Virus record (IMG/VR): IMGVR_UViG_2802429245_000006
Length of the DNA stretch: 40,663 bases
DNA from: a virus
Taxonomy: Duplodnaviria; Heunggongvirae; Uroviricota; Caudoviricetes
Reading direction: 5' to 3' (one strand)
In this document: one piece after another, positions 931-30,064 of the stretch
Numbering within the stretch: position 1 is the stretch's first letter
How the letters are laid out: each line of letters opens with the position of its first letter
Position numbers and translations under genes: made by a program
Notes under the pieces: generated by a model
Told to the model about the DNA's origin: nothing
The model's database searches: none
What the model saw: the letters and a program-made list of their open reading frames with translations, nothing else

Positions 931-1353
931 TCACCGGTTCTGGTGCAGAAGCTGCAGTTGGCGCAGGGTACGGATATCCTCCCTGGCCTGTTCAATACAG
1001 GGCAGCAGTGCTGCCGAATCCGTTTTATCCTCATCGTTGTCGAAAATAATTCCGGACTCACAGTCGATATTGTCCTGCAGCCACGCAATGAGGATATCCA
1101 GCGCTGTTTCAGTGGTTAATGGCATCACGCTCTGTATCACTGTATTGTCTTCCGGCAACTGATGAGGGCTGGCAGAAGTTGCCGGTGTTTCGGTAGCGTC
1201 ACGTTCATCCACCACGCGGAGTGAATAACCGTTTTCAGCGACTTTGTTAATCAGTTCAGCGAGCTTAATACCATCGACGTCAACGACAATGCGCCCCATG
1301 TTCAGTGCCTGCACGTTAACGCTGTCTGCCTCCAGCGTCAGGGCCAGTTTCAT
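931..1353 (-). CDS. YeeW-like hypothetical protein immediately downstream of cbtA
   Basis: 140-aa ORF; its ATG (1351-1353) overlaps the cbtA stop in an ATGA junction. Position matches yeeW in CP4-44-type islands. Confidence 0.5.
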   Translation of the reverse strand: MKLALTLEADSVNVQALNMGRIVVDVDGIKLAELINKVAENGYSLRVVDERDATETPATSASPHQLPEDNTVIQSVMPLTTETALDILIAWLQDNIDCESGIIFDNDEDKTDSAALLPCIEQAREDIRTLRQLQLLHQNR

Positions 1354-1727
1354 TGTTTCGCCTCCGGATGCTTCCCCTGGGTAATGCCATTTACCGTTCT
1401 GTAATTGTCGCGGGTCATCAGGCCTGTCGCCCGGCGGGCCCGGAGGATATCGATGCTGTTTATTAACTGAGAGTGGGTACAGGTGCTGAATCCCGGCTGG
1501 TCGGTACGTACCAGCGCGTATTTTTCAACGAGAAAGTTCACCGCATCACACAGTGAAATGCCAGCTTCAATATGCTGCTCAATCACACGTTCATCGGCGA
1601 ACGGTGTGTCATTCAGCGTGAGGCCGTAATGCTGGTCCAGCAGTCGGGTGAGCAGTGTCTGCCAGATTTCAACCGGAGACGGGCGTGAACCGGCCGCCTG
1701 CCCGGGTAATACAGGTAATGTTTTCAT
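1350..1727 (-). CDS. cbtA: CbtA/YeeV-family type IV toxin (cytoskeleton-targeting)
   Basis: Translation from the ATG at 1727 (MKTLPVLPGQAAGSRPSPVEIWQTLLTRLLDQHYGLTLNDTPFADERVIEQHIEAG...) closely matches my memory of YeeV/CbtA. The ORF-track frame extends 47 codons further upstream. Confidence 0.85.
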   Translation of the reverse strand: MKTLPVLPGQAAGSRPSPVEIWQTLLTRLLDQHYGLTLNDTPFADERVIEQHIEAGISLCDAVNFLVEKYALVRTDQPGFSTCTHSQLINSIDILRARRATGLMTRDNYRTVNGITQGKHPEAKQ

Positions 1728-1816: not shown

Positions 1817-2185
1817 TTACTTTTTCGTTTCGGGCGTCGGATAAACAGCCATATAAACGTAGCCACAACTGCCGAGGGTGTCGGCTTCGCAGGTCAGCCC
1901 TTTTGCATACAGCGTGACGGTATGCTGATGGCGGGGATTCAGTTCACCGCTGGTGAGCATGAGTTCCAGTTGTTTCATCAGCAGCGGAAGGGCTTGGTCC
2001 AGGTGGTACGCATCCGCGTCGCTGAACCGGCCTCTGATACCGGCACGGTCGGCAAGGTAATGCAACTGGTTGTCTTCCTGCACCAGACGTGCCCCGAAAC
2101 AGGGCGTCACGGTGCAGGGTAGCCCCCACCAGGGGCGGTCGTTGTTGTCGTCGGGATAATTTGTTTCATGGAGCGTGTCTGACAC
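1817..2185 (-). CDS. cbeA: CbeA/YeeU-family antitoxin
   Basis: GTG start at 2183-2185 gives VSDTLHETNYPDDNNDRPWWGLPCTVTPCFGARLVQE..., 122 aa, matching the YeeU family. AAGGA lies upstream. Confidence 0.85.
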   Translation of the reverse strand: MSDTLHETNYPDDNNDRPWWGLPCTVTPCFGARLVQEDNQLHYLADRAGIRGRFSDADAYHLDQALPLLMKQLELMLTSGELNPRHQHTVTLYAKGLTCEADTLGSCGYVYMAVYPTPETKK

Positions 2186-2234: not shown

Positions 2235-2882
2235 TCAGCCGGCGCGCAGACCGGCTTCGGTGAAGGTGTATTCGTTGATGAGCAGGGCCTCATCCACAGC
2301 GGCGTCTGAGGTCAGCCAGTCGTACTCGTTTTCCAGTTGACGGTACAACCAGAAGGCCAGGTCGCGCAGGGCTTCGCTGACTGCGGCTTCCGCATCGGTT
2401 GTCATTATCTGACCAGTCGGACTGTTCCGGGTGACGGTGATATCCATGCTGTACGGATGGCAGTAACGTCCCCGGTGACTGATTTCAGCCTGTAACTGCC
2501 AGAAGTTACGCTTCTGTACCGACTGCAGGGCATCCGCGATACGATGAAGTTCACGGTCCTGTGGGGCATACTCCCGGATTCTCCTGGCTGTTGCTGACTG
2601 CCAGTGCCAGCGTCCTTCAAAACAGGCTCCGTCCCCCTGGCTGCAGAATCCGCTGAACCAGATGCACGGCTCTTCCATAAACCTGCCGTTGCTGAGCCGG
2701 AAAACGCGCTGGCGGAGGCTAATCCCGAAAATGTTACAGACCTCCCTGAAGTCTTCATACACGTTTTCATACCAGTTGCTGTCAGCATGATGCTGACGGT
2801 ACCAGTCGCGGGCTTTTTCCCGTGCAGCAGGGCAGGAAAGTTCATCCAGCGTATACACAGTGGTGGTGATAATGCTGCTCAT
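2235..2882 (-). CDS. Hypothetical protein, 215 aa, Trp/Cys-rich, function unknown
   Basis: ATG at 2880-2882 with AGGGGAT upstream. Fits exactly between the yeeT stop (2901) and the cbeA start. Not recognised by me. Confidence 0.6.
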   Translation of the reverse strand: MSSIITTTVYTLDELSCPAAREKARDWYRQHHADSNWYENVYEDFREVCNIFGISLRQRVFRLSNGRFMEEPCIWFSGFCSQGDGACFEGRWHWQSATARRIREYAPQDRELHRIADALQSVQKRNFWQLQAEISHRGRYCHPYSMDITVTRNSPTGQIMTTDAEAAVSEALRDLAFWLYRQLENEYDWLTSDAAVDEALLINEYTFTEAGLRAG

Positions 2883-2900
2883 CAGAATCCCCTTTCTGAT

Positions 2901-3122
2901 TCAGTTCAGGGTGACGCTCATCAGCCGGACATACGGACCAAAACTGTCCTTACGGCGTTCTGCAAACACGGCCAGCACACCGGGAATATCCTGCACTTCA
3001 CGACCGGTATACGCTTCAGCACTGCCGTGCCAGCGGTATTTGCCGGTACAGAACGGAAAAAGACGGGATGCCGGATGCTGACGGTGAATACGCATGGCTT
3101 CGCCACGGGTGATGATTTTCAT
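2901..3122 (-). CDS. yeeT: YeeT-family protein (DUF987)
   Basis: 73-aa translation MKIITRGEAMRIHRQHPASRLFPFCTGKYRWHGSAEAYTGREVQDIPGVLAVFAERRKDSFGPYVRLMSVTLN matches YeeT. Confidence 0.85.
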   Translation of the reverse strand: MKIITRGEAMRIHRQHPASRLFPFCTGKYRWHGSAEAYTGREVQDIPGVLAVFAERRKDSFGPYVRLMSVTLN

Positions 3123-3184: not shown

Positions 3185-3661
3185 TTAAAGCAGACCATGT
3201 TCGGCAAAGGAGAAAACCTGGCTGCCACCGACTATCAGATGGTCCGGCACCCGGATATCCACCAGGCCCAGTGCCTGTACCAGACGTTCCGTGATAAGGC
3301 GGTCTGCCTTGCTGGGTGTGACTTCACCGGACGGGTGATTGTGTGCCAGCACCACAGCAGCGGCATTGTGATACAGGGCGCGTTTAATCACTTCCCGGGG
3401 ATGGACTTCCGTGCGGTTGATGGTGCCGGTGAAGAGGGTTTCACCGGCAATCAGCTGATTCTGGTTGTTCAGATACAGCACCCGGAACTCTTCACGCTCC
3501 AGTCCCGCCATGTTCAGAATCAGCCATTCTCGTGCCGCACGGGTGGAGGTGAAGGCCACGCCGGGTTCATGAAGATGGCGGTCCAGGGTTTTCAGGGCCC
3601 GTTGAATGAGGCTGAGCTCGCCGGGCGTCATCTCTCCGGGCAGAAAGGAAAGCTGTTGCAT
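3185..3661 (-). CDS. yeeS: RadC-like JAB/MPN-domain protein (YeeS/YfjY/YkfG family)
   Basis: From the ATG at 3661: MQQLSFLPGEMTPGELSLIQRALKTLDRHLHEPG... with the HNHPSG JAB motif. Confidence 0.85.
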   Translation of the reverse strand: MQQLSFLPGEMTPGELSLIQRALKTLDRHLHEPGVAFTSTRAAREWLILNMAGLEREEFRVLYLNNQNQLIAGETLFTGTINRTEVHPREVIKRALYHNAAAVVLAHNHPSGEVTPSKADRLITERLVQALGLVDIRVPDHLIVGGSQVFSFAEHGLL

Positions 3662-3676
3662 TGTACTTCTCTCCAT

Positions 3677-4150
3677 TCAGTCGATGATGCGCATAATGGC
3701 GCTGCATTCCGGATGCTGCAGGGCGTAATCCCGCAGCCGGTAATAATGGACCGTCATGGCATAACACTCCGTACGACAGGCATGATGACTGTACGTCATC
3801 AGACAGGCAGCAATGCCGGCAGCTTCCGGACTCATTTCAGCGCGGTTACCGTTCATGGCATTGAACAGTACCCATGTTTCGTCATCATCGTCATCCGGTT
3901 CGGGTGCTATAAATGCCCCGCCGTTGTTCAGGGTGTACAGATTCCAGATACCACCGCAGTAGTCTTCGCACAGACGGTCCATCCAGCCGAAGACACGGGG
4001 CTCCAGGGTCACCCACTGTGGAATGAGGCCAAAATGCTGCGGCCAGAAGCTGATGCGCTGTTCATCAGGGACTATGGTGGCAACCAGTTGTTGCAGGCCA
4101 GTCTCCGGTGCACAGGCCGAAGAGGTGGTGTTCTGAGACAATGTTTTCAT
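3677..4150 (-). CDS. klcA: KlcA/ArdB-type antirestriction protein (YfjX/YafX family)
   Basis: From the ATG at 4148-4150: MKTLSQNTTSS...FWPQHFGLIPQWVTLEPRVFGWMDRLCEDYCGGIWNLYTLNNGGAFIAPEPDDDDDETW..., characteristic of the family. Confidence 0.8.
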   Translation of the reverse strand: MKTLSQNTTSSACAPETGLQQLVATIVPDEQRISFWPQHFGLIPQWVTLEPRVFGWMDRLCEDYCGGIWNLYTLNNGGAFIAPEPDDDDDETWVLFNAMNGNRAEMSPEAAGIAACLMTYSHHACRTECYAMTVHYYRLRDYALQHPECSAIMRIID

Positions 4151-4243: not shown

Positions 4244-4489
4244 TCAGGGATGAATGATATTCGTCTGAAATTCCGGACAGCCGTACGCGTAACCGTTCCG
4301 GTCACAGACGGATGGCCAGATGCCATTGTCTGTACTCAGTCTGCACAGACTGAGTTCTCCGGGACGGTAAAGCAGACGGGTACACCAGGCGCACAGGTCA
4401 TCATCAGAAATGGAACGACACCCCAGCAGCGCCTCCGGGGCGTCGGGTGATTCTGGTACCTGAATCACGCCTTCAGAGACAGGCTGCAT
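4244..4489 (-). CDS. Small Cys-rich hypothetical protein (81 aa)
   Basis: ATG at 4487-4489 overlaps the stop of the upstream DUF932 gene (TGATG), suggesting translational coupling. No recognised family. Confidence 0.45.
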   Translation of the reverse strand: MQPVSEGVIQVPESPDAPEALLGCRSISDDDLCAWCTRLLYRPGELSLCRLSTDNGIWPSVCDRNGYAYGCPEFQTNIIHP

Positions 4490-5307
4490 CAGCGCATACT
4501 CTCCAGCAGCGTTTCTGCCATTACCCACAATGCGCGGTTGAGCTTAATATCGGTATCAATGCTGTGAATGGCACGGGTGTGGATACGTTTTCCTCTGGCA
4601 CTGCGACCGGAAATCCCGCCTTTCAGCATATTCTCCTGGATGGTCTGATAAGTACTCCACAGGTCCTTACCGTAATCCTCCCGGCGTCGTGGCGTCAGAA
4701 TGTCGGCGGTGGTGACGGGCTGATGTTCGTCACCATAACGGTAAGTCAGTGCCGCCTGTGCCAGCGCCTGGCGTGCCGGTGGCGGCAGGACCAGCGACTG
4801 CATGGCATCACGCTTTTCCTCAATCCGGTCAAAAACCCCCACCACTTCGTAAGCCCCTTCGATAACTTTCTCCACCACATTTCCCCGGTGTGGAACACGC
4901 ACTTCCCCCAGAGACTGACCGCAGACCAGGCCATTGGTACAAATGGCACGGAAATATCCGGGTAACATCTGGTAGCTGGATGAACCGTCATGGGAGTTGA
5001 GCAGAATAATTTCAGGCACATGCTGACCGGTTATCTGTCCGGCCCGCCGCAGGCGCAGCATGTGTTTTGTGTATCCCCGGCGGCCCGGGTCACGTACGCG
5101 GGTCTGGCAGGCAAAGAAGGGCTGAAAACCTTCCCGCTGCAGGCTTTCCAGCACGGTGATGGTGGGGATCCAGGTATAGTTCTCGCTTCTGGATGTGTGC
5201 TTATCTTCCCCGAATACGCTGGGGACGACCTGCATCAGTTCTTCACGAGTTAAGGGGCGGTCACGGCGTATCTGGTTCGCATAACCAAAACGACTGGCTA
5301 ATCGCAT
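4489..5307 (-). CDS. DUF932-family protein (YafZ-like)
   Basis: 272-aa translation MRLASRFGYANQIRRDRPLTREELMQVVPSVFGEDKHTSRSENYTWIPT... matches the YafZ family of CP4-type prophages. Confidence 0.8.
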   Translation of the reverse strand: MRLASRFGYANQIRRDRPLTREELMQVVPSVFGEDKHTSRSENYTWIPTITVLESLQREGFQPFFACQTRVRDPGRRGYTKHMLRLRRAGQITGQHVPEIILLNSHDGSSSYQMLPGYFRAICTNGLVCGQSLGEVRVPHRGNVVEKVIEGAYEVVGVFDRIEEKRDAMQSLVLPPPARQALAQAALTYRYGDEHQPVTTADILTPRRREDYGKDLWSTYQTIQENMLKGGISGRSARGKRIHTRAIHSIDTDIKLNRALWVMAETLLESMR

Positions 5308-8550: not shown

Positions 8551-8767
8551 CAGCTTTTCCTTACAGAGGGTGAATAAAAAAGCCGGTACCCACAAAAGTG
8601 GATACCGGCAGGTACAAAACAGCATGGTCAGATAAAGTGGTTTTTCCCGGACATAAATGCTTCCCCTCTCTCATCCGCCAGAGAAGTATCAGTCCGTTGT
8701 GTGCAATTCCGTTCTGCATGATGAAGAGATTCAGCTGCCTTTTCGCAGACCATTAACCACTATAAAC

Positions 8768-8803
8768 GATCGATAGCAACGATCGATACCTATTTTATCG
8801 ATC
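8768..8803. promoter_or_regulatory. agn43-type phase-variation switch: three clustered GATC sites (Dam methylation / OxyR operator)
   Basis: GATC at 8768, 8781 and 8800 inside a cgatcg-rich tract about 220-250 bp upstream of the flu start codon. Confidence 0.75.
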
Positions 8804-8922
8804 GTTTTATTCTATTAACAGCAAAGCAGTCACGCAAGAGAAACAGGAGGGGTATGAGGTGTTTGTGTCATGTTTTCAGTTGGTTAACGCAATGTAATCG
8901 GGTATTTCCCCTGGCAGACTGT

Positions 8923-10527: not shown

Positions 10528-11112
10528 TATGTCGTATCCGTTGAAGGATTTACGCATATCGGTAATGCCGGCACCCAGCCAGATGCGGGTACCTGACGGG
10601 AGTGAGATCATTGTCCCCTCCCGCTCAGTTCACGGAGCAACACTGTGAGCAGATCTGGTGAAGGATTTTCCAGCGTCATGTTACCGTGACGGAACTCCAC
10701 CTTGCAGGAGCTGGCACTGACAGTAGTCTGGGTGGATAAAGACGGAGTAAGAGCAGCCACCGGTTCTTGCGGCTCATCCGGCGTTATCTCCACAGGTAAT
10801 AATTCAACGCCAGTGTCAGAAGAGGTTGTTACCGGAAGACGCCGCGATATACGCCCTTCGTTTTGCCAAAGTCTGAGCCATTTGAAAATAACATTATCAT
10901 TGACGCCATTTTCTCGAGCAATCTGGGCCACACAAGCACCGGGTTGTGATGCCAGTTCAACCATACGAAGTTTGAATTCATTCGAATACTTTTTACGAGG
11001 TTCTTTTCGCCAGTCCTGTAATTCCATACTTAGATGTCCGTCTGTGTCAGATGGGCGTCTAAGTTACCAATTCTTGTCTAATGGCTACATACGGCGGTCG
11101 GTTTACGCTTAC
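10528..11112 (-). mobile_element. IS66-family remnant (terminal repeat, tnpA, 5' stub of tnpB)
   Basis: Minus-strand terminus GTAAGCGTAAACC ends at 11112. tnpA is followed by a tnpB start (MISLPSGTRIW...) overlapping the tnpA stop in ATGA at 10608-10611. tnpB homology ends near 10528. Confidence 0.65.
10608..11027 (-). CDS. tnpA: IS66-family accessory protein TnpA
   Basis: 139-aa ORF with ...YSNEFKLRMVELASQPGACVAQIARENGVNDNVIFKWLRLWQNEG..., the TnpA pattern recalled from IS66-family elements. Confidence 0.65.
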   Translation of the reverse strand: MELQDWRKEPRKKYSNEFKLRMVELASQPGACVAQIARENGVNDNVIFKWLRLWQNEGRISRRLPVTTSSDTGVELLPVEITPDEPQEPVAALTPSLSTQTTVSASSCKVEFRHGNMTLENPSPDLLTVLLRELSGRGQ

Positions 11113-11865
11113 CTTGTTCTGGAAAAGCTGGAGATGAAATGGTCTCCAGAGCAAATATCAGGATGGTTAAGGCGAACAAAACCACGTCAAAAAACGCTGC
11201 GAATATCACCTGAGACAATTTATAAAACGCTGTACTTTCGTAGCCGTGAAGCGCTACACCACCTGAATATACAGCATCTGCGACGGTCGCATAGCCTTCG
11301 CCATGGCAGGCGTCATACCCGCAAAGGCGAAAGAGGTACGATTAACATAGTGAACGGAACACCAATTCACGAACGTTCCCGAAATATCGATAACAGACGC
11401 TCTCTGGGGCATTGGGAGGGCGATTTAGTCTCAGGTACAAAAAACTCTCATATAGCCACACTTGTAGACCGAAAATCACGTTATACGATCATCCTTAGAC
11501 TCAGGGGCAAAGATTCTGTCTCAGTAAATCAGGCTCTTACCGACAAATTCCTGAGTTTACCGTCAGAACTCAGAAAATCACTGACATGGGACAGAGGAAT
11601 GGAACTGGCCAGACATCTAGAATTTACTGTCAGCACCGGCGTTAAAGTTTACTTCTGCGATCCTCAGAGTCCTTGGCAGCGGGGAACAAATGAGAACACA
11701 AATGGGCTAATTCGGCAGTACTTTCCTAAAAAGACATGTCTTGCCCAATATACTCAACATGAACTAGATCTGGTTGCTGCTCAGCTAAACAACAGACCGA
11801 GAAAGACACTGAAGTTCAAAACACCGAAAGAGATAATTGAAAGGGGTGTTGCATTGACAGATTGA
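11113..11865 (+). pseudogene. insI: IS30 transposase InsI, N-terminally truncated
   Basis: Translation ...LVLEKLEMKWSPEQISGWLRRTKPRQKTLRISPETIYKTLYF...[15 protein letters not shown] is the C-terminal two thirds of the IS30 transposase. The 387-aa ORF-track frame is a chimeric read-through. Confidence 0.85.
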
Positions 11866-12207: not shown

Positions 12208-12541
12208 CTCGAACCCCAAGACCGGCAATGGAATCGCTTTGTAGAGCTAGAGTTAGTGCCGCATCCTCGTATTGAGCACAGCGAAGCGATTGAGCTAGAC
12301 TATGGCATGACGGGGGGCGCTCTAAAGGTTGAGATTAGAGCGGCCTCGGCAGGCTACTTACTCAGACAATGGAATGTGGATTGTTCTACCAACGCCACAC
12401 TCCAAGATGGTGGAGCTCAATTGTACTTAAAGAACAGAGCAACACTTTATGGAGTTAAAAACATCATGCTAGCTCCAGGGATTGAAAAAGAACTTGGTAA
12501 CTAATGCACAAAAACGAACTTGGCGCAGGGAATAAATTTTG

Positions 12542-15500
12542 ATGAAAATAATCGATAACCTTAACAACCTATTAGGTGACGAGCTTCAACAGACGCTGAC
12601 ACCGAATACAAAGTTAAAGATTGCTGCGTCTTGCTTTTCTATTTATGCGTATGAGGCTCTCAAAAAGGAGTTAGCGAAGATAGACTCACTTGAGTTCATC
12701 TTCACATCACCTACTTTTGTCGCAGATGAAGTTACCGATAAATTCAAAAAAGAAAAACGAGAGTTCTTTATTCCCAAAGCAGGGCGTGAACGCAGCCTTT
12801 ACGGAACTGACTTTGAAATACAGTTAAAGAACAAGCTCACTCAAAAGGCGATCGCCAAAGAGTGTGCAAACTGGATCAGAAAGAAAGCGACATTCAAATC
12901 AAACAAAACTGATTCTCCAATGCAGTCGTTTGTTGTGACGGAAGCACCTAGACAGCAAACAGAGACAATGAGTGCAGTTTTTGCTCCGGTTAGCGGGTTT
13001 ACGGCGGTTGATCTAGGGTATCAGCGAGGAAATGCTATTTCGAATTTTGTGCAAAAAATCGATGAGCCAAATTTCACAGCCCAGTACTTACAGTTATTCG
13101 ACCAAATTTGGAAAGACCCTGCGAAGCTTCAAGATGTTACTAAAACAATTTGCGAGCATATAGAGTCTGTCTACCAGGAAAACTCGCCTGAGAAAGTCTA
13201 TTTCATTATTTTGTATAACATTTTTAATGAGTTCCTTGATGATATTACAGAGGATGTATTACCAAATGATCGAACCGGCTATCAGGACACCTTGATTTGG
13301 AACAAGTTATTCAACTACCAAAAAGATGCCGCGACTGGGATTATCAATAAGTTAGAGACCTATAACGGCTGCATTCTGGCTGATAGTGTTGGTCTTGGTA
13401 AAACATTTACAGCGTTAGCTGTCATCAAGTATTACGAGCTCAGGAACAAGTCCGTACTTCTACTGTGTCCGAAAAAATTGGCAGATAACTGGCTCAACTT
13501 TAATCGAAACTTAAAGACAAATATCTTTGCTAAAGACCGTTTTAGTTACGATGTTTTGTGTCACACAGATTTGAGCCGAATCTCTGGCGAATCCTTCGGT
13601 ACTCCGTTGAATAGAATAAACTGGGGTAACTATGACTTGGTCGTCATTGATGAGTCGCATAACTTTAGAAATAACGATGCAGTGAAAGATCGAGAAACCC
13701 GATATCAGAAACTGATGAATAAAGTTATTCGGGCTGGCGTGAAAACCAAAGTCCTGATGCTATCAGCGACACCAGTGAATAATAGATTTACTGACCTGAG
13801 AAACCAGCTTGCGTTAGCTTATGAAGGCGAGTCGAGCAATCTCACAAAGCATCTTAAAACCACAAAAAGCGTAGAACAGATCTTCAACCAAGCACAAGCC
13901 GCATTTAACGCTTGGTCCAAACTCGACCCAGAGACGCGAACAGCTAAAGCCATACTCGATGCCTTAGATTTCGACTTTTTTGAACTGCTTGATAGCGTCA
14001 CTATCGCTCGCTCACGAAAGCACATCACAACATTCTACGACACAACAGATATTGGCCATTTCCCTGAACGTAACAAGCCAATCTCGTTTCATTGTCCGCT
14101 TACTACTCGTTCGGATGTAGTTAGCCTGAATGAGATCTTTGAACAGCTTAAGCTACTCAAACTATCTGTTTATGCGCCAGTGAGTTATATCCTCCCGAGT
14201 AGATTGAAGAAATATGAGGAGATGTATGACACGGAAGTTGAAGGCGGAAAAGGTAAGTTAAAGCAAAGCGACCGTGAAAAAAGTTTGGTTGCATTGATGA
14301 CAACGAACCTCCTAAAGCGTCTTGAGAGCTCCGTATACTCGTTCAGAAGCACCTTGCAATCTCTCCATGATAACCATGTTCGTGTTCTAGGTATTATCGA
14401 CGAATTCTATAAGCGAGACGGGCAAACCGAAGTGAGCAGTCTCGTTGAAGCGCTAGAGTCTATTGAAGCAGATGAAGACGATATGCCTTCTTATCACGAT
14501 ATGGAAATCGGTAACAAAATCAAAATTAAGCTAATGGATATGGATCTTCCATCCTGGCAGCAGGATTTAGATGGCGATTTGGAGCTGATCAAAGGGTTAC
14601 TAGATTCTGTTAGCAAAATTAAGCCAGAAGAAGATGCTAAGTTGCAGCATCTGAAATCACATATTGCTGCAAAAATAAATAATCCGATAAATCCTGGAAA
14701 CCGGAAAATCATCGTGTTCACGGCGTTTGCTGACACCGCTCAGTATCTGTACGAGCAGTTGTCACCTGTGATGTTAAGCGAGCATAGAATCCATACTGCG
14801 ATGATCACTGGTGGTGCCAGTTTACCTAAGACCACCTTAAAAACCGGACGAAAAGGTTACGACACACAAGAAGTGCTCACCTTGTTTTCTCCAGTTTCCA
14901 AATCGAAAGCCAGTGTATTACCTGACGAACCCGCTGAAATCGATTTGTTGATTGCTACAGACTGTATCTCTGAAGGGCAGAACTTACAGGATTGCGATTA
15001 CTTAATTAACTTTGATATTCATTGGAATCCAGTTCGGATTGTTCAGCGCTTTGGGCGTGTTGACCGTATTGGCTCGGCGAATAAATGTATTCAGTTAGTT
15101 AACTACTGGCCTGATATATCGCTGGATGAGTACATCAACTTAAAAGAACGTGTTGAAAGTCGAATGACGATTGTTGACGTAACAGCGACCGGTGATGACA
15201 ACGTTCTAAGTTGTCAAGCGAATGATGTGTCGTACCGTAAAGAGCAGTTAAAGAAACTACAAGAAGAAGTCATCGAGCTTGAAGATTTAAAAACGGGGGT
15301 TTCTATCACCGATCTAGGTCTAAACGAATTTCGAATGGACCTGCTAAATCTAATGAAACTCTACGGCGAACCAAGAAATGCACCAAGCGGCATGCATGCG
15401 GTGGTTGAGGCTAAGCCAGAATTAGGGTTATTGCCTGGCGTGGTGTTTGCGCTGAAAAACGTTAATAACAGTATCGATAGAGATCTGCAAAACAGGCTCC

Positions 15501-15874
15501 ACCCTTATTACCTTGTCTATGTATCGAATGAAGGGGACATCGTCGCTAATCATTTTGAGGTAAAGAGACTATTAGATTTAATCCGAAGTAGCTGTAAAGG
15601 TCAAACAGCACCGCTCAGTGAGATTTGTGCTTTATTTAATCGCTTAACGCAAGACGGTCGAGATATGCAGTGTTACTCTCACCTTCTAACAGATGCCATA
15701 AAAAGCATGGTTGAAGTTAAGGAAGAAAAAGATATTGATAGTTTGTTCAATGGTGGCGCTACCTCAGCTTTAGTGAATACATTTGCCGGGCTTGATGACT
15801 TTGAATTGCTGGCATTTATTGTGATCCAGCAAAAGCACCTGATGGAAAATAGTGCTCAGGATGAGGTTAGCTAG
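12542..15874 (+). CDS. SNF2-family helicase/ATPase with an unassigned ~250-aa N-terminal domain
   Basis: Motif I ADSVGLGKT, motif II VVIDESHNFRN, motif III LMLSATPVNN, C-terminal helicase motifs ...TDCISEGQNLQ... and QRFGRVDRIGS; 1110 aa from the ATG at 12542. Low-GC coding sequence. Confidence 0.85.
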   Translation: MKIIDNLNNLLGDELQQTLTPNTKLKIAASCFSIYAYEALKKELAKIDSLEFIFTSPTFVADEVTDKFKKEKREFFIPKAGRERSLYGTDFEIQLKNKLTQKAIAKECANWIRKKATFKSNKTDSPMQSFVVTEAPRQQTETMSAVFAPVSGFTAVDLGYQRGNAISNFVQKIDEPNFTAQYLQLFDQIWKDPAKLQDVTKTICEHIESVYQENSPEKVYFIILYNIFNEFLDDITEDVLPNDRTGYQDTLIWNKLFNYQKDAATGIINKLETYNGCILADSVGLGKTFTALAVIKYYELRNKSVLLLCPKKLADNWLNFNRNLKTNIFAKDRFSYDVLCHTDLSRISGESFGTPLNRINWGNYDLVVIDESHNFRNNDAVKDRETRYQKLMNKVIRAGVKTKVLMLSATPVNNRFTDLRNQLALAYEGESSNLTKHLKTTKSVEQIFNQAQAAFNAWSKLDPETRTAKAILDALDFDFFELLDSVTIARSRKHITTFYDTTDIGHFPERNKPISFHCPLTTRSDVVSLNEIFEQLKLLKLSVYAPVSYILPSRLKKYEEMYDTEVEGGKGKLKQSDREKSLVALMTTNLLKRLESSVYSFRSTLQSLHDNHVRVLGIIDEFYKRDGQTEVSSLVEALESIEADEDDMPSYHDMEIGNKIKIKLMDMDLPSWQQDLDGDLELIKGLLDSVSKIKPEEDAKLQHLKSHIAAKINNPINPGNRKIIVFTAFADTAQYLYEQLSPVMLSEHRIHTAMITGGASLPKTTLKTGRKGYDTQEVLTLFSPVSKSKASVLPDEPAEIDLLIATDCISEGQNLQDCDYLINFDIHWNPVRIVQRFGRVDRIGSANKCIQLVNYWPDISLDEYINLKERVESRMTIVDVTATGDDNVLSCQANDVSYRKEQLKKLQEEVIELEDLKTGVSITDLGLNEFRMDLLNLMKLYGEPRNAPSGMHAVVEAKPELGLLPGVVFALKNVNNSIDRDLQNRLHPYYLVYVSNEGDIVANHFEVKRLLDLIRSSCKGQTAPLSEICALFNRLTQDGRDMQCYSHLLTDAIKSMVEVKEEKDIDSLFNGGATSALVNTFAGLDDFELLAFIVIQQKHLMENSAQDEVS

Positions 15875-15877
15875 TTT

Positions 15878-16564
15878 ATGAACTCACCTTGGATATTTCC
15901 TGACAACGCAAAGTTCGGTCGAGTCGTGCCTAAGAACAAAATATATGAGCACAGCGCGGCAAGCACTGGGTTGAAGTCACTTTTTGTAGAGCAAGTAGAG
16001 CAAATCCTTTGGGCTTACAAGCTATCGCCTAGCACGCTGAATATTCCTCAAACCAGTGAGGTCAGTGAAATACAGGTTTTCAGTGTGAAGCTTAAAGGTG
16101 ACTCGATAGACGACAGCGTACTAAAAGCCATTGATTTGGCGATACCTTTTCCCATTCTATTTGAGGTATGGGAAGCTCGCGGTGAGCAAGGCCACTACGT
16201 TGCTTGCTATAAGCGTAAGGCAGAAAATGATCAGTCAAAATGGTTTTGTAGCCGCTATTTACGTTCAGAAACCTTCTATTCAAGTGATTCATTAGCAGTG
16301 ACTTCAGAAGTTTTGGGTTTGCCTACCGCTATCGATATGGCGGAGCTGTATCAAAAGCTTCTTACTCGCTTGTTACCCATACCCCAACGAGCCGCTGAGA
16401 GTATAGAAGAGGCTATTCAACGCCTGGAGGCAATTCAGGCATTGGAAAAGCAAATCTCGCAATATAAGAAGAAGGTTCATGCCGAGAAACAGTTTAACCG
16501 CAAGGTTGAGCTCAATAAGCAGTTAAAGAATTTAAGGTGCGAGCTTCAAGAGTTACTCGCATAA
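15878..16564 (+). CDS. Small accessory protein (DUF4391-like, with C-terminal coiled coil)
   Basis: 228-aa ORF starting 3 nt after the helicase stop. Family assignment is from recalled gene neighbourhoods, not a verified match. Confidence 0.55.
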   Translation: MNSPWIFPDNAKFGRVVPKNKIYEHSAASTGLKSLFVEQVEQILWAYKLSPSTLNIPQTSEVSEIQVFSVKLKGDSIDDSVLKAIDLAIPFPILFEVWEARGEQGHYVACYKRKAENDQSKWFCSRYLRSETFYSSDSLAVTSEVLGLPTAIDMAELYQKLLTRLLPIPQRAAESIEEAIQRLEAIQALEKQISQYKKKVHAEKQFNRKVELNKQLKNLRCELQELLA

Positions 16565-16637
16565 AGAATAAACAATTTCAATCAGTTAAATAGTGCCACA
16601 TGCTTTTTATGCAAGGCATCACGCAAAAGGTGAACAC

Positions 16638-18629
16638 ATGGACAAATTAAAGATGCACAGCCCCGACATGACGCAGCAAAACATAGAGAAAATTCAGGCG
16701 TTGTTTCCGAACTGTGTGACGGAATCAAGAGGAGCTAACGGAGAGCTAAAGTTAGTCATTGATTTTGACCAACTTAAACAAGAGCTATCAAATTCAATCG
16801 TTGAAGGCCCGCAAGAGCGCTATCAGCTGAACTGGCCCGGTAAGCGAGAAGCACTACTAACAGCGAATGCACCTATTGCCAAAACCTTAAGACCTTGTCG
16901 AGAAGAAAGTGTCAATTTTGACACCACTAAAAACCTCTTTATTGAAGGCGATAACCTTGATGCATTGAAACTGCTACAAGAGGCATATATTGGAAAAGTC
17001 AAATTAATATATATTGATCCACCTTATAACACCGGTAATGACTTTATATATGAAGACGATTTTTCTGAAAATGCAGAGAGCTTCTTAATAAAGTCCAACC
17101 AGAAAGATAGTGATGGTAATAAATTAGTAGCGAATACAGAAGCTAATGGCAGATTTCACTCGGATTGGCTAAGCATGATGTACTCACGTTTGAAATTGGC
17201 TCGTAATCTACTAAGTGATGAAGGAGCTGTGATTATCTCAATTGATGAGAATGAACACAGCAACATAGTGAAATTAGGTGGTCTTATATTTGGCGATGAA
17301 AACTTTTGTGGCGAAATAGTCTGGAAAAATAGTAGTAAAAATGACCAGAAATATGTCTCAATACAACACGAATACCTTGTTATATTTGTTAAATCAAAGC
17401 AAAACAATAAGGGGGATTGGGTTGAGAAAAAAGAAGGCCTAGACCAAATTTATCAAGCGTTTGATGGTTTTAAACGCAAACATGGCAATGACTGGGATGC
17501 AATACATGCAGATGCGCTTGAATGGTATAGGAGTTTCCCTGCATCCAATCCAATTTCATCAAGTAAACATTATAGCTGGATGGACGAGCGCGGTGTATAT
17601 TTCCCAGATAATATTTCAGGCCCAAACGATGGTCAGTATGTTTATGACGTCATCCATCCTGTGACTAACAAACCATGCAAAATGCCTTCTACAGGATGGC
17701 GCTATCCAGAATCAACGTTAATTGAAAGAATAGCTGATAATCGAGTGCACTTTGGAAAGGATCATAAAACTGTTCCAAACAATAAAACGTATCTAAAAGA
17801 TACTGAATATCAGAGCCTTACGAGCATGCGCTTCGTTGATGGTCGCAGCGCTTCTAAAAGGCTGCAAACCCTTTTCGGTGATAAAGTTTTTACAAACCCT
17901 AAAGATGAAATTTTATTAAAAGATTTATTTAAAGCAATTGGTGTATCAGAAAAAGATATAGTCCTTGATTTCTTTGCAGGTTCTGCATCGACGATACATG
18001 CTGTTTTTGAACTCAATAAAGAAACTGGCAGTAATTGTTCGTGTATCCTAGTGCAGCTTCCAGAAGATCTGAAAGAAATGTTAAAAACGGCTAAAGGTTC
18101 TGCTAAGAAAGTCACGCAGAACGCTATCAATTATTTGAAAAATAAAGGCCTACCACAAACAATTAGTGAAATTGCAAAAGAACGTATTCGACTTTCGGGG
18201 CAAAAGTATACCGAAGATTTCGATATTGGATTCCGAGTTCTCAAAGTAGATACCTCCAACATGGCGGATGTGTACTACTCTCCAGATCAAGTTACTCAGG
18301 GTTCGTTAGACTTATTGGTAGATAATATTAAAGCAGACCGCACTGATGAAGATTTACTTTTCCAGGTTCTACTTGATTGGGGCGTCGATTTAACCTTGCC
18401 AATTAGAAAAGAAACGATTCAAGGTAAATCGGTATTCTTTGTCGATGATGATGCACTGGTGGCCTGTTTTGATCTGCGCATAAATGAAGCTTTGATTAAA
18501 GAGTTAGCCACAAAAGAGCCACTTCGCGTAGTGTTCCGTGATGACGGCTTTGAGTCTGATGCAGTAAAAATCAATGCTGAGCAGATTTTCAAGCAAGTGT
18601 CGCCACATACTGAAGTTAAAGCGATATAA
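16638..18629 (+). CDS. mod: Type III Mod-like N6-adenine DNA methyltransferase (beta class)
   Basis: Catalytic motif [12 protein letters not shown] precedes AdoMet motif [12 protein letters not shown], the order typical of Type III Mod. ATG at 16638 with AAGGTG upstream; the ORF-track frame begins 15 codons earlier. Confidence 0.85.
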
Positions 18630-18638
18630 GGAGGGATC

Positions 18639-18728
18639 ATGACAAATTTTACCGGATTAAAATTTGCACACAGCCTTGTCGCAGACAAGGTGTGCCCGAA
18701 GTGTTGCGTACATGGAGGTGCGCAATGA
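18639..18728 (+). CDS. Possible 29-aa leader peptide (uORF) coupled to res
   Basis: ATG at 18639 is 4 nt after AGGAGG; translation [29 protein letters not shown]; its TGA overlaps the res ATG (ATGA at 18725-18728). Confidence 0.3.
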
Positions 18729-21700
18729 AACTTAAGTTCAAAGTCCAACCTTATCAAACTGTTGCCGTAGAGTCGGTTGTTGACTGCTTTGCGGGGCAAC
18801 CTAACACATCCGGCGTTACCTACCGAATCGACCCTGGCGTTGCCAAGGATAAGTTTGGCAATGCTGGTTGGGATATGAGCGACCAAGACGGTTTTAAAAA
18901 TGCAGAACTCGCGATCACTGAATCGCAGTTATTGCAAAATATTCATGGTGTTCAAAGTAGACAGAACCTCCCTGTTTCAGAAGCGTTAGTCAGCAATGCT
19001 AGCGCTAAGATTAATCTCGATGTTGAAATGGAAACCGGTACTGGTAAGACATATTGCTACATCAAAACCATCTTTGAGATGAATAAGCGCTATGGCTGGA
19101 GCAAATTTATTATCGTTGTGCCTAGCATCGCCATTCGTGAAGGTGTTTACAAGTCGCTGCAAATCACAGGTGAGCATTTTGCTCAGAATTACGACGGTAA
19201 AAAGGCCCGGTTCTTTATCTATAACTCGAAACAATTGCACCAGTTAGAGAGTTTTTCTTCTGACAGTGGCATCAATGTGATGGTCATTAATATTCAAGCC
19301 TTTAATGCTTCAGGAAAAGACAATAGACGTATTTATGAAGAGTTGGATGACTTTCAGTCTAGGCGTCCTATTGATGTTATTAGTGCAAACCGTCCAATCC
19401 TGATTTTGGATGAGCCACAAAAGATGGAAGGCAAGAAGACATTAGATGCCTTAGCCAAATTCAAACCACTGATGGTACTTCGATATTCGGCCACGCATAA
19501 GACAACACATAATAAAGTGCATCGCCTGGATGCGCTTGACGCTTATAACAATAAGCTGGTTAAGAAAATTGCCGTTCGTGGTATTTCAGTAAAAGGCTTG
19601 GCGGGAACGACAGCCTATCTATATTTGGAATCCATCGAGATCTCGAAAAAAATGCCAGTGGCTCGCATTGAGATCGAAGTTAAACAACAAAATGGTATTA
19701 AACGCATACCCAAGAAGGTTACTAAGGGCGATAATCTTTTTGATCTTAGCAATGGTCTGGACCAGTACCGTGACTTTGTGGTTACTGATGTCAACGCGAT
19801 TAACGACACGGTTGAATTCAAAAATGGCCATGTTTTAACCACGGGCGATGCGACGGGAGACGTGACCGAAGAGACCATTCGCCGAATACAGATCCGCGAG
19901 ACAATTAAAGCGCACCTTGAAAAAGAAAAAACACTTTTTAACCAGGGTATAAAGGTTCTCTCTCTCTTTTTTATTGACGAAGTCGCAAAGTATAGGGACT
20001 ACTCTCAAGCCGATGAAAAAGGTGATTATGCTCGCGTTTTTGAAGAAGAGTACTCCTTGCTTGTACAGGAATATCTTGATGAGTTGACTCTTTTACCGAG
20101 TGAGCAGACTGATGCCTATAAAGCCTATCTATCGGCCATTGAAGGCTCCAGAACGCATAATGGTTACTTCTCAATTGATAAGAAATCAAATCGTCTTCAG
20201 AACCCCGGCTTTAAAGTCCGTGGTGAAGATGCCGGGCTATCAGACGATGTAGATGCTTATGATTTGATTCTAAAAGATAAGGAAAAGTTACTTTCGTTTG
20301 AAGAGCCTACTCGGTTTATCTTTTCACATTCGGCCTTGCGCGAGGGGTGGGATAATCCAAACGTATTTGTCATGTGTATGTTAAAACACAGCGACAACAC
20401 TATCTCTCGTCGTCAAGAAGTTGGGCGTGGTTTACGTCTGGCCGTCAATAAACATGGTGACAGACAAGACCATCCGGCAACTGTGCATGAAATTAATGTT
20501 TTGTCGGTGATTGCAAGTGAAAGCTATAAAGACTTTGTCACGAATCTGCAAAAAGAGATCAGCGAGTCTCTCTCAGCGAGACCTAGAAAAGCAGATGAAG
20601 CTTATTTTACGGGTAAGACAATTACAACAGCTGATGGACCTGTAGAAGTAACACCTGTCATGGCTAAGCAAATTTATAAGTATTTGCTTAAAAATGATTA
20701 TACCAATGACGTTGACGATTCAATTGCGCCATCATTCCACCAGGCTAAGGCTAGTGGACAGTTAGCGCCAATGCCTGCTGAGTTAGAGCCTTACCGCGAG
20801 CAAATATTGACCCTGATTGACGGTGTTTATAGTGAAGCGCAATTGCCAGGTGTTGGTGATGATCGTAAACCTAAAAACAATCCGTTGAATGCTAATTTTG
20901 ATAAGAAAGAGTTTCAGGAGCTTTGGCACAAAATCAATCGCAAAGCGGTTTATAAGGTTGATTTTGATTCGTCTGAGTTGATTAAAAATTGTATTCGGGT
21001 ACTCAATAAAGAGCTTAAGGTAACGCCTCTTCAGTACACGATTCAAGATGGTGTTCAATTGGATGGCATTACCGACGAACAACTCAAAGCTGGACAAAGT
21101 TTCAAGGTGAAAAACACTGAGACTGAAACTCATCAATCGAGCATTCATTCTGCTGTTCGTTATGACTTGGTTGGTAAGTTGGCTGAAAATTGTGTGCTGA
21201 CTCGCAAAACAGTCGCCGAAATACTGATGGGTATAGAACCTGTAGTATTTGCACAATTTAAGCAGAACCCTGAGCATTTTCTCGCTGAGGCTTCACGCCT
21301 TGTGAAAGAGCAAAAGGCATCTGTGATCATCGAGAAGCTATCATATGATCCAACGAACGAATCTTATGATGTTGATATATTCACGGCAGAGCAAAAAATC
21401 ACTGATATGACAAAAGCCGTTAGTGGCGTTAATAAGCATATTTATGATTATGTTGTCGTTGATTCACAAGGCATTGAACGGGACTTTGTTACCGAGCTTG
21501 ATACAAGCAAAGAAGTCGTGGTTTATGCAAAACTGCCTCGTGGTTTTCTGATACCGACGCCTGTTGGCGACTACAACCCTGATTGGGCGATTTCTTTCAA
21601 AGAAGGAAGTGTTAAACACATTTACTTTATTGCAGAGACTAAAGGAACGATGTCTTCGCTTGAATTGCGTGGCATAGAAGATCGCAAGATTGAATGTGCT

Positions 21701-21802
21701 AGGAAATTCTTTGAAAAAATTAATGCAGAGATAACGAGTGAAAACGTCAAATATGATGTTGTAACGAGTTACTCGAAATTAATGGAAGTCATAAGCGGTT
21801 AG
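18725..21802 (+). CDS. res: Type III Res-like restriction subunit (helicase plus C-terminal PD-(D/E)xK nuclease)
   Basis: Walker [11 protein letters not shown], motif [13 protein letters not shown]-like RYSATHK, motif [12 protein letters not shown]-terminal ...NPDW...FIAETKG nuclease-like motif. ATG at 18725 with GGAGG upstream. Confidence 0.85.
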
Positions 21803-22400: not shown

Positions 22401-23213
22401 GTGATGACAATGTGTCGGGTACTGGATGTCGCCCGGGCCGGGTTCTACGCGTGGCTGCATAACCCGGTCTCGGCACGTGATAAAGATAATCAGCGTCTGC
22501 TGACGCTTATCCGTGACTCCTATTCACTGAGCGGAGGCGTATACGGTTACCGGCGGGTTCATGGCGACCTGAACGAAATCGGGGAAACCTGCGGTAAAAA
22601 CCGGGTGGGCCGTATTATGCAACTGAACCGGATTAAAGCCGTGCGCGGCTATAAAGCGCCGCGTCGTATCGCTGGCAGACCTTCAGTGGTTGCCCCTAAT
22701 CGCGTGCAGCGGCAGTTTACTGTTGTCCGGGCCAATCAGGTCTGGGTCACCGACATTACTTATTTCCGCACCTGGCAGGGCTGGCTGTATCTGGCGGTGG
22801 TTATCGATCTCTTCGCCCGTAACGTGGTGGGCTGGTCGATGAAGCCCACTCTCTCACGCGAACTGGCGTTGGATGCACTGATGATGGCGGTCTGGCGACG
22901 TAAACCCGACGGCGAGGTCATCGTGCACTCAGACCAGGGAAGCCAGTACGGCAGTGACGACTGGCAGCGCTTCTGCCGGGCTAATAACCTGGTCCCGAGC
23001 ATGAGCCGGCGTGGCAACTGCTGGGATAATGCGGTGGCCGAATCGTTCTTCAGTTCACTGAAAAAAGAGCGCATCAGGAAGAGAATATACAAAACCCGGG
23101 ATCTAGCCCGGGCGGATATCTTCGATTACATTGAAGTGTTCTACAACCGGGCCCGGCGCCACAGTCACCTCGGCGGCGTCAGTCCGGAGGCCTTTGAACA
23201 GGCCTCGTCGTGA
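22401..23213 (+). CDS. IS3-family transposase OrfB (DDE integrase core), expressed by -1 frameshift from orfA
   Basis: The frame is open from about 22320; DDE-region motifs ...WVTDITYF...HSDQGSQY...CWDNAVAESFF... The annotated start is a GTG. Confidence 0.8.
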   Translation: MMTMCRVLDVARAGFYAWLHNPVSARDKDNQRLLTLIRDSYSLSGGVYGYRRVHGDLNEIGETCGKNRVGRIMQLNRIKAVRGYKAPRRIAGRPSVVAPNRVQRQFTVVRANQVWVTDITYFRTWQGWLYLAVVIDLFARNVVGWSMKPTLSRELALDALMMAVWRRKPDGEVIVHSDQGSQYGSDDWQRFCRANNLVPSMSRRGNCWDNAVAESFFSSLKKERIRKRIYKTRDLARADIFDYIEVFYNRARRHSHLGGVSPEAFEQASS

Positions 23214-25411: not shown

Positions 25412-26845
25412 TCAGAGGTCAAAGTTAGGTGCGACATACCACGTTTTTCCCTCAATAACCGGTACAACTCTGTTTTGTTCATACAGTAAATCCAGTAACC
25501 AATTGATTTTATCCTTTTTCCGGAAACGGTTCGGACCACGCTGTAAAATGTCATTTTTTTTCATACAGGGGATCCCCTTCTCAATGCAATAGCTTTTTAT
25601 CCAGTTAAAAAGTTCAAGCTCCTCTGGAATGAGTCGCACAGGTACGGTCAGGGCAGAGTTTTCAAACGTTAACGGACTGGATAACCGAACATACTCATTA
25701 CCATACCATATTGCTAATTCTCTCGCCATTTCAGCAGTGTAGGGGGAAATGTCACCTTCCTCACCGCTAAAATGGTGAATAAGTCCTGCCAGTCTTGCCA
25801 TATACTCTGCATTTTTAGCAGCATATTCTCTGAAGTCTCTTAAAGGCCCCAGAACCGACATCTTCGATTCCACATCGTTGTAATAGTCCGTCCAGATTCT
25901 GGCTGCCTGAGGAGAAAAGTGAAGGCAACGCCGCTCTCCCCTCATCGCCAGGCTTTCATCAATGAGTTCATTTATCCTCTGTTCAAACAAATCCTGATAC
26001 TGTGATGAATAATTATCTCCGGTTATTATCCTTGTCCCCTGCGTTGATGTTGGTTGACACATCAAAAACCTTGCATGATGTCCCGACGTTTTCACAAGTT
26101 CTTTTTTTCGTGTACAAAAACCTTTGTGGTAAACATCAGGCTGAACCATCACCGATATCGTCAGTCTTGGTTCCTTCAAAAAAATTCCGGGAGATGATTT
26201 CCTGTCGATGAAAAGAGAACCACCATCCCACAAAGAGTTAAGTATTCCCAGTTTACTCATTGCCCGGCTGTCAAAAATTATCCCACCTTCACTGGATACA
26301 AGAGCAAAAGAGCGATTGCTATCAGAATAATATTTTAACATTCCCTCTATCGTTGTATCATTAAAAATTGTTCGATGTATCTGTGGTGGAACAGGACACT
26401 TATTCAGATGTGTTTTAAGCTCTGATTCTGTTGTCTTATAATCTTTACCGGCACGAATCTCTTTATGAAGTTTTGACTCCAGTGCTTTTTGTTTTTGCTC
26501 CCATATTTCCTTTTCTGTACTGTAATTCTCAACCAGTTTCGCGTATTCTTCCGCCAGGGCTTCATCCCTGAGATAAAATGCTTTCATAAACACTTTATCC
26601 ACGGTCGTTTTCCTTTCACCAGAATCAGCCAGAATCATAGAGTAAATATTAGAGGACCCACGTAAATTTCCTGGCCTGCACACATCAACCTGATTCTGAC
26701 AGGCAATTGACATCGCTGTTAATGCTGCAGTTATCGCCATAGCTATAGGTGTCTGTGTATTCTTTTGAGTTTCAATTATTGCATTTCTCGCCAGCGGTGG
26801 CATTGCATATATCGGACAAGGATTTTCTGGTGCAAGTAAGCACAT
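25412..26845 (-). CDS. yfjI: YfjI-like protein (DUF3987 family)
   Basis: Long ORF; ATG at 26845 with GAGG upstream is preferred over the ORF-track start at 26863. Position between alpA and yfjJ matches CP4-57. Confidence 0.7.
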   Translation of the reverse strand: MCLLAPENPCPIYAMPPLARNAIIETQKNTQTPIAMAITAALTAMSIACQNQVDVCRPGNLRGSSNIYSMILADSGERKTTVDKVFMKAFYLRDEALAEEYAKLVENYSTEKEIWEQKQKALESKLHKEIRAGKDYKTTESELKTHLNKCPVPPQIHRTIFNDTTIEGMLKYYSDSNRSFALVSSEGGIIFDSRAMSKLGILNSLWDGGSLFIDRKSSPGIFLKEPRLTISVMVQPDVYHKGFCTRKKELVKTSGHHARFLMCQPTSTQGTRIITGDNYSSQYQDLFEQRINELIDESLAMRGERRCLHFSPQAARIWTDYYNDVESKMSVLGPLRDFREYAAKNAEYMARLAGLIHHFSGEEGDISPYTAEMARELAIWYGNEYVRLSSPLTFENSALTVPVRLIPEELELFNWIKSYCIEKGIPCMKKNDILQRGPNRFRKKDKINWLLDLLYEQNRVVPVIEGKTWYVAPNFDL

Positions 26846-27420
26846 AAATGCCTCTCTTTTCATTAATGGGTTAGTAAAGTAGCAGCAACTCCCGCTATAA
26901 TAGCGAAAATAGCTGCTGTTCAGACCTAATGTTCTGAAAAATACAGAATATCTGTAGATCTGATGTTTAATAACCGATAAGGTTAATTCAGTTCAGACTG
27001 TGTTATTTACCACGAAATATCATTCATGTTTCTCATTCTTAACACCTCCTAAAATTATTTCACTAACACCTTCCCCCCGGTCTTTTTCCTTTCTCAGGAA
27101 TCAGCCAGAACCATAGTGTAAATATTAACGGGCCCACGTAAATTTCCGGAGCTGCACACGTCAATCTGATTCTGACAGGCAATTGACATCGCTGTTAATA
27201 ATGATGTTGTAGTCATAGCCAGAGATGCTTTTTCATTTTGTTGAGTTTCAATTATTGCATTTCCAGTCATTGATGGTTGCGCATATACTGGATACGGAGT
27301 ATCCGGTTTGATGTAAGACATAAATATTCCCTTTTTTCGTAATGACTTTCGGTTATAGCAGCTATTTCCGCTACAATAGCAACAATAGCTGCTATACAGA
27401 CTGGATATACTGAAAATACA
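26603..27420. repeat. Tandem imperfect direct duplication (~350 bp, roughly 75-80% identical) of the yfjI promoter-proximal and 5' coding region
   Basis: 26603-26940 aligns with 27076-27420 by eye (for example gacaggcaattgacatcgctgttaat and gagtttcaattattgcattt occur in both). Confidence 0.75.
27094..27321 (-). pseudogene. Truncated duplicate of the yfjI 5' end
   Basis: 75-aa ORF MSYIKPDTPYPVYAQPSMTGNAIIETQQNEKASLAMTTTSLLTAMSIACQNQIDVC... parallels the N-terminus of the full gene and ends inside the duplicated block. Confidence 0.6.
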
Positions 27421-27426
27421 AACAGT

Positions 27427-27654
27427 TCATCTGGTCTGTATCCAGCAGAGAAGGTCACTTAACAACCATCCGCAAGATTTCTTTCCGATAGACTTACGTG
27501 GTGGAAATTTTCCCTCCCGTTCAAGTTTCCACGCTTGCGTACGAGAAACTGACGTGATCTCATATCGTTCCTTTTCACGTACCAGTCTGTCGCATTCAAT
27601 CCCATAAGCTTTCAAAATGACCAGACGCTGTTCATCTGTTAATGGAAGCCACAT
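27427..27654 (-). CDS. alpA: AlpA-family phage transcriptional regulator (HTH)
   Basis: ATG at 27652-27654 with AGGAGGG upstream; ...ERYEITSVSRTQAWKLEREGKFPPRKSIGKKSCGWLLSDLLCWIQ resembles AlpA-type HTH proteins. Confidence 0.75.
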   Translation of the reverse strand: MWLPLTDEQRLVILKAYGIECDRLVREKERYEITSVSRTQAWKLEREGKFPPRKSIGKKSCGWLLSDLLCWIQTR

Positions 27655-29978: not shown

Positions 29979-30064
29979 ATCACTGAGGGGATAACAGCCC
30001 GGTTATCCCCTGTTTGTTCTGCTTCAGGTTGCCAGAGCTCTAGGAACACGAGGCAATCGGCAAA

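Follow-up and report, generated by a model that had tools for sequence, protein, structure and literature searches.

A DUF8835 gene between yeeT and cbeA: a backbone gene of CP4-44-type islands deleted from K-12, and a possible establishment or anti-defence factor of mobile elements

The order of genes in the CP4-44 island of Escherichia coli K-12 serves as a natural reference for related islands. There, as the original prediction had it, yeeT is followed directly by cbeA across a 73-bp spacer. The 40,663-nt stretch of DNA analysed here as a whole (the window) holds a 215-codon open reading frame in this interval, which raises the questions of whether an additional gene was inserted into a conserved arrangement and what such a gene might do for the element that carries it. 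The original prediction had answered the former in the affirmative and had suggested an anti-defence or toxin-antitoxin-associated factor for the latter. Its description of a well-formed gene with a good ribosome-binding site between yeeT and cbeA was confirmed for start codon, length, stop codon and binding site alike (Table 1). The gene begins 18 nt from the stop of the DUF987/yeeT homologue (2901), ends 49 nt short of cbeA, whose GTG start is at 2185, and is present in a single copy in the window; its GC content of 56.5% agrees with the predicted compositional likeness to neighbouring genes (55-57.5%). The exact 215-aa protein is encoded on 144 public contigs and has a MULTISPECIES record at NCBI, and dN/dS among intact E. 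coli copies with 10-22% synonymous-site difference is 0.18-0.29. Because the exact protein recurs in this way, is accompanied by thousands of homologous clusters and evolves with a dN/dS of about 0.2, the frame is a real gene and no chance ORF.

Table 1. Features of the window with their positions, strands and the basis of each assignment
Feature	Position	Strand	Basis
cbtA/yeeV-family toxin	1350..1727	(-)	Pfam PF06755, E 6e-58
cbeA/yeeU-family type IV antitoxin, directly downstream of the DUF8835 gene	1817..2185	(-)	Pfam PF06154, E 5.6e-53
215-aa DUF8835 gene	2235..2882	(-)	ORF, ATG start, TGA stop
RBS AAGGGG of the DUF8835 gene	2889..2894	(-)	6 nt 5' of ATG; read from sequence
DUF987/yeeT homologue, directly upstream of the DUF8835 gene	2901..3122	(-)	Pfam PF06174, E 1.5e-40
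RadC-like JAB protein, yeeS homologue	3185..3676	(-)	Pfam PF04002, E 1.5e-44
KlcA/ArdB-type antirestriction protein	3677..4150	(-)	Pfam PF03230 (Antirestrict), E 1.5e-36
DUF932 protein	4489..5307	(-)	ORF; DUF932 CDS annotated there in closely related loci
DUF3987 protein	25412-26863		
Tyrosine integrase	30791-32107		
Nu1-like small terminase	32907-33452		
Major capsid protein E	34397-35524		
DUF927 primase-like protein	36704-38842		

The surroundings of the gene are those of an island of the same type. The cbeA gene of the window has the length of the RefSeq CDS in a related locus (L001), and farther upstream, on the same strand, lie DUF905, an Ag43/Cah-type autotransporter, named after its annotated counterpart in near-identical loci, and a YeeP-like GTPase. 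Terminator-like hairpins were predicted on the minus strand solely at 5376-5347, 5680-5654 and 4445-4416. None was predicted from the antirestriction gene through cbtA, in the compact block that starts with DUF932, which makes a single transcription unit plausible, and the DUF8835 gene is probably co-transcribed with its neighbours. The island backbone reads DUF932, KlcA-like antirestriction, RadC, DUF987, DUF8835 gene, CbeA and CbtA, and the DUF8835 gene is an ancestral part of this backbone in the integrative islands of CP4-44/'yee' type found in Enterobacteriaceae. Two smaller features accompany this region. One is an ORF of 94 aa (4244-4528, (-)), rich in Cys and unmatched in Pfam, which separates DUF932 from the antirestriction gene, overlaps the former at its 3' end and encloses the hairpin at 4445-4416; related islands have a 53-aa gene in its place. 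The other is an Rfam IS102 RNA (RF00124, 69.8 bits) at 8569-8805 (-), where the long Ag43 ORF has its upstream end, a site roughly matching that of the sRNA gene isrC in K-12 CP4-44, just upstream of flu.

Among 5426 complete E. coli genomes searched by megablast, 2828 contain some match to the gene and 1943 (36%) a full-length copy, defined as at least 80% of the gene covered, with up to eight matching places per genome and almost all of them chromosomal. The contiguous order DUF987-gene-CbeA (YeeU) is found in 1929 of the complete genomes, so that nearly every full-length copy is placed as in the window. The gene is not unusual in E. coli, and RefSeq already names its protein. It is a routine member of the module, though not a characterised one: a literature search on the family name, DUF8835, DUF987/DUF932 and yeeT/yeeU found no paper on the family.

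Comparison of the short intervals with the intact locus shows that K-12, although its layout served as the reference, has the derived arrangement, reached via deletion. The K-12 CP4-44 spacer keeps the ribosome-binding site, the ATG and the first 22 nt of the DUF8835 gene (28/34 identical), and this gene start is fused to the final 28 nt ahead of cbeA (26/28 identical); strain RM9245 carries the same scar. A second scar type, present in O103 RM8385 and one O157:H7 strain, lacks the 5' 535 nt and keeps the last 113 coding nt together with the 3' spacer (154/162 and 137/162 identical). The corresponding intervals of CP4-57 and CP4-6 in K-12 (37 and 18 bp) hold no remnant of the gene, which is absent from all three K-12 CbtA-family loci. 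Two different remnants of one ORF show that the intact gene is ancestral and that the short intervals of K-12 and O103/O157 are deletion derivatives. What had been read as an insertion into a conserved interval is, as the retained gene pieces show, the undeleted form.

Other altered copies were also encountered. An E. ruysiae copy (L011:6001-6645, 92% identical) has two internal stops in translation and may be a pseudogene, its frame being provisional. In some E. coli the gene is fused in frame to CbeA (342-343 aa; ...GLRAG-LPEDFIV-SDKLHETN...), the stop codon and some of the spacer having been lost; these fusions (P0002, P0005, P0007-P0010, P0012-P0015 and others) are mostly singleton clusters, P0015 being found on 8 contigs. 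One such natural fusion was modelled with AlphaFold to look for docking between its two parts (pTM 0.61); the CbeA part has a pLDDT below 50, because the alignment is shallow there.

The only library match of the protein is phrog_5162 ('unknown function'; E 6.5e-36, residues 3-211), and DNA 99.4% identical to the gene is annotated as DUF8835 in RefSeq, the name on which the DUF8835 assignment rests. Scans of the 215-aa protein against NCBIfam, PADLOC and a Pfam copy lacking the DUF8835 model gave no family match, and neither did a Pfam scan of 78 family members; the earlier statement that no motif could be recognised thus holds for these three libraries and gives way to the full-length match to phrog_5162. 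Judged from these matches, the gene is a typical and already catalogued member of DUF8835/PHROG 5162. Three RefSeq records (NZ_AP045770.1, NZ_CP104500.1 and NZ_CM192120.1) carry the misspelt name 'DUF8835 domain-containing pootine'.

The family is large and conserved. It comprises 3611 homologous clusters at 90% identity, and a HMMER search of 50%-identity representatives returned 3471 sequences at E<=1e-3 and 413 at E<=1e-30. Family members are nearly all stand-alone proteins of 200-225 aa, and the extensions of eight longer ones (229-374 aa) contain no Pfam domain that would point to a fusion. They are acidic, with a median pI of 4.8 and a median net charge of -15. The window protein shows the family motifs FSGFxSQGDGAxFEG, YxH and NEYxF. 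Near-invariant positions in an alignment of 78 sequences are E14, L15, G53 and the loop G78-F-x-S-Q82-G-D84-G-A-x-F-x-G90, followed by Q123, Y140-x-H142, W178, Y180, L183, N203, F207 and G211. The predicted richness in Trp and Cys is correct for this copy, which has 8 Trp and 6 Cys, and does not extend to the family: just W27, W178 and, in part, C87 are kept among its members, and a Cys-cluster motif is therefore absent.

AlphaFold2, run from the family alignment, predicts a single alpha/beta domain with a pLDDT of 96.6 and a pTM of 0.89. A Foldseek search of this model against the PDB returned nothing at E<=0.001, phmmer found no match among PDB sequences, and a structure search of BFVD matched solely uncharacterised phage proteins. 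The modelled fold is accordingly one with no solved structural relative.

Outside the enterobacterial islands, nearly all of the 80 best-matching genome loci belong to Alphaproteobacteria (60-64% identity). The neighbours of the gene were clustered for 74 alphaproteobacterial loci, neighbouring ORFs being taken from a heuristic caller and Pfam being run on cluster representatives. Upstream, a 712-aa ParB_N protein is found in 49 of the 74 loci, ArdC in 25, RadC in 13, DUF2958 in 12, and DUF6878 and DUF6915 in 11 each, while a 185-aa protein with no assigned family occupies position -1 or -2 in 40. Downstream, a 1453-aa strawberry-notch helicase (AAA_34/Helicase_C_4) is present in 52 loci and stands directly next to the gene in 41 (of 72-74 alphaproteobacterial loci), followed in frequency by a Toprim/DUF7146 protein (34/74), DUF4326 (6/74) and TacA (4/74). 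SSB, DUF932 and KlcA-type antirestriction proteins also occur in conjugative-element loci, and within such elements the gene keeps company with genes for SSB, anti-restriction proteins, ParB, methyltransferases or helicases. A two-gene cassette formed with the upstream gene was considered and rejected, DUF987, DUF6878 and the 185-aa alphaproteobacterial family being mutually dissimilar. The window copy shares 56-64% identity (median 61%) with its alphaproteobacterial homologues, compared with about 36% for RadC and 37% for the antirestriction protein, and in 83 alphaproteobacterial loci there was no CbtA, CbeA, DUF987 or detectable DUF932 relative of the window's genes. More distant homologues are found in metagenomes, where three of five contigs are shorter than 2 kb.

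Individual elements illustrate the variety of these arrangements. In Tistrella the order on one strand is DUF2958-ParB-DUF736-...-gene-two small ORFs-NikA-relaxase; the same contig (L003:1269-3742) carries a ubiquitination-like cassette (Multi_ubiq, Prok-E2_E, ThiF/JAB, BubE) a few kb upstream. Devosia has ArdC-...-gene-DUF4326-Antirestrict-helicase-Toprim, and a Thioclava plasmid DUF932-RadC-DUF6878-gene-DUF6088/AbiEii. Conjugative MOBP/MPF_T plasmids of Celeribacter and Pukyongiella read, on one strand, ParB-SSB-DUF932-RadC-DUF6878-...-gene-MbcA/RES-...-helicase-Toprim-...-relaxase-T4CP. In all three elements inspected for this purpose the gene lies upstream of the relaxase on the same strand, at 1.9 kb in Tistrella, 25 kb in Pukyongiella and 37 kb in Celeribacter, and placement in the leading region was judged from the position of the relaxase in these three. 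Such an orientation toward relaxase/oriT would fit leading-region genes encoded on the T-strand. Families of anti-restriction, methyltransferase, SSB and toxin-antitoxin proteins, along with uncharacterised ones, are reported to be over-represented in leading regions (PMC11541004).

Phages form another part of the family's range. Homologues of 31-39% identity were found by tblastn in 64 GenBank phages, and a pattern scan of IMG/VR returned at least 470 contigs with homologues. Caulobacter jumbo phages carry the gene inside their 23.9-kb terminal repeat, surrounded by small hypothetical genes; in Pseudomonas phage PMBT3 it belongs to a hypervariable array of small same-strand genes near a cytosine methyltransferase. 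Neighbours in 79 viral loci are short, with a median of 105 aa; 74% of them are on the same strand, and nearly all are unrelated to each other (864 clusters from 1026 proteins), with no conserved partner gene. These phage gene arrays are early-looking. An annotation as 'RNA polymerase binding protein' in Acinetobacter phage CP14 was set aside, the record being implausible throughout, for example in its 60-aa 'DNA polymerase' genes.

What the protein does may be approached from this distribution. The reading that we favour, tentatively and with somewhat less than even confidence, is that mobile elements use it as a stand-alone establishment or anti-defence factor; the genomic context makes an anti-defence role plausible. 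In such a scheme a stand-alone, acidic, single-domain alpha/beta protein, from a family carried on conjugative plasmids and integrative conjugative elements as well as on genomic islands and in lytic phages, would be made early from incoming mobile DNA and would act on a conserved host component. Its candidate acting surface would be formed by the near-invariant E14, the S-Q82-G-D84-G loop, Q123, H142 and N203. The E. coli islands would have inherited the gene together with KlcA, RadC and DUF932; it has since been lost repeatedly by deletion, K-12 included. The known families closest to this description are KlcA/ArdB, ArdA and ArdC. They and the DUF8835 protein share a niche, the gene adjoining a KlcA-type gene in E. 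coli and Devosia and lying near ArdC in 25 loci, and all are small, acidic, stand-alone proteins with homologues in phages too. The DUF8835 protein differs from them in having no Pfam match (PF03230, PF07275, PF08401) and no match to a solved structure; PADLOC and the known anti-restriction families likewise gave no match to the window protein. That the family as a whole constitutes a structurally new, previously unrecognised establishment or anti-defence class, directed at a host component conserved in Proteobacteria, is a bolder proposal which we hold to be somewhat less probable, though far from negligible. If it were true, conservation of the host target across Proteobacteria would account for the 61% identity between E. 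coli and Alphaproteobacteria.

The features that make the family attractive as a defence inhibitor can also be turned in another direction. A sequence conservation unusually high for a mobile-element accessory gene, the near-invariant polar residues E14, Q82, D84, Q123, H142 and N203, and a helicase gene in 52 of the 74 loci, directly downstream in 41, would all suit an enzyme or cofactor in the processing of transferred DNA, a partner of the strawberry-notch helicase/methyltransferase or of the ParB-like protein, rather than an inhibitor of defence. We regard this as unlikely, given that the DUF8835 gene occurs without the strawberry-notch helicase both in E. coli islands and in phages, that neither fold nor sequence was found to resemble any enzyme class, and that the eight longer members show no domain fusions. 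A far less probable view still is that the gene is, in E. coli, a decaying passenger that no longer has a function. Its repeated deletion, with at least two widespread scar types, the truncated and fused variants that are common in databases and the two internal stop codons of the E. ruysiae copy speak for decay; the low dN/dS among intact copies, the persistence of full-length copies in more than a third of genomes, at up to eight matching places each, and the strong family-wide conservation speak against it.

The remaining alternative concerns the company that the gene keeps in Enterobacteriaceae, where every copy inspected, including those of only 60-65% identity, lies in a CbeA/CbtA module. 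A third component or modulator of this type IV toxin-antitoxin module would explain such linkage, and several arrangements would agree with it: a divergent E. coli island has the order DUF987-gene-CbeA-76 aa-CbtA; a Salmonella island (L103:9094-11081) with a 60% identical homologue has DUF987-CbeA-CbeA-gene-CbtA, with the gene inside the pair; rare natural in-frame fusions to CbeA of 343 aa exist (e.g. P0010, P0015); and on Rhodobacterales plasmids and in some genomes AbiEi/AbiEii, MbcA/RES or TacA directly follow the gene. A toxin-antitoxin association was the alternative named in the original prediction, and it is also what the database name implies. The link to the pair is weak. K-12 CbtA-family pairs behave as two-gene systems, and all three of their loci are devoid of the DUF8835 gene. 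The 83 loci with a 56-64% identical homologue hold no CbtA and no CbeA, the homologues of lytic phages have no conserved partner, and directly downstream of the gene in the 74 alphaproteobacterial loci a toxin-antitoxin gene is seen in few cases (four TacA) against 41 for the helicase. With no resemblance to CbeA or to any antitoxin family added to this, we consider a role within the module quite improbable, less so than decay and more so than a part in DNA processing. Long co-residence on islands, together with the gathering of toxin-antitoxin cargo at the end of the leading-region operon, also fits the linkage and is the simpler account. As a separate observation, the antitoxin and toxin genes of the Salmonella island are about 650 bp apart with an unrelated coding sequence between them.

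The 'antitoxin' name borne by family members in databases deserves comment of its own, as neither sequence nor predicted structure nor gene context supports it. No antitoxin Pfam family matched the window protein or the 78 family members at E<=1, and hhalign of the family profile against the CbeA of the window gave a probability of 0.7%. In an ETEC proteomics table the same antitoxin phrase labels relB, which marks it as a generic label. UniRef gives one near-identical cluster member the name 'Antitoxin of the YeeV-YeeU toxin-antitoxin system', a label that looks carried over from the neighbouring gene. With CbeA/YeeU (PF06154) the protein shares adjacency on one strand in Enterobacteriaceae and an occasional in-frame fusion; it is, however, larger (215 vs 122 aa), has no sequence or profile similarity to it and belongs to a family that is widespread where CbeA/CbtA are missing. 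With antitoxins of the RelB/Phd/StbD type ('toxin-antitoxin stability system') it has the database name alone in common, being a 215-aa protein of one modelled alpha/beta domain that matches none of the small DNA-binding antitoxin domains, and most DUF8835 contexts contain no cognate toxin, so that obligate pairing with a toxin is not seen. Under the explanation favoured above, of which this forms a part and whose tentative standing it shares, the DUF8835 protein would be no antitoxin, and CbtA/CbeA would work without it.

For the window itself the result is mostly corrective, turning a supposed novelty into a routine, catalogued island gene. If the proposed establishment/anti-defence class proves true, its reach would be wider: thousands of 'antitoxin' annotations would be wrong, and a widespread new class would explain one of the many uncharacterised families of leading regions. 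The family may be worth experiment in any case, being very large and unusually conserved, with a confident model that has no solved relative, and lying among anti-restriction genes in conjugative elements and in early-looking arrays in phages.

Two further elements of the window lie apart from the island genes. On the plus strand, positions 12539-21802 encode an SNF2/ResIII helicase (1111 aa), a DUF4391 protein (228 aa), an N6/N4 DNA methylase (678 aa) and a ResIII helicase with RE_endonuc (1036 aa), flanked by transposase genes at 10702-11865 and 22401-23213; the four genes together resemble a restriction or defence cluster of a type III-like kind. A second mobile element extends over 25412-40447 and, by the genes listed for it in Table 1, resembles a P4-like satellite or a phage remnant.
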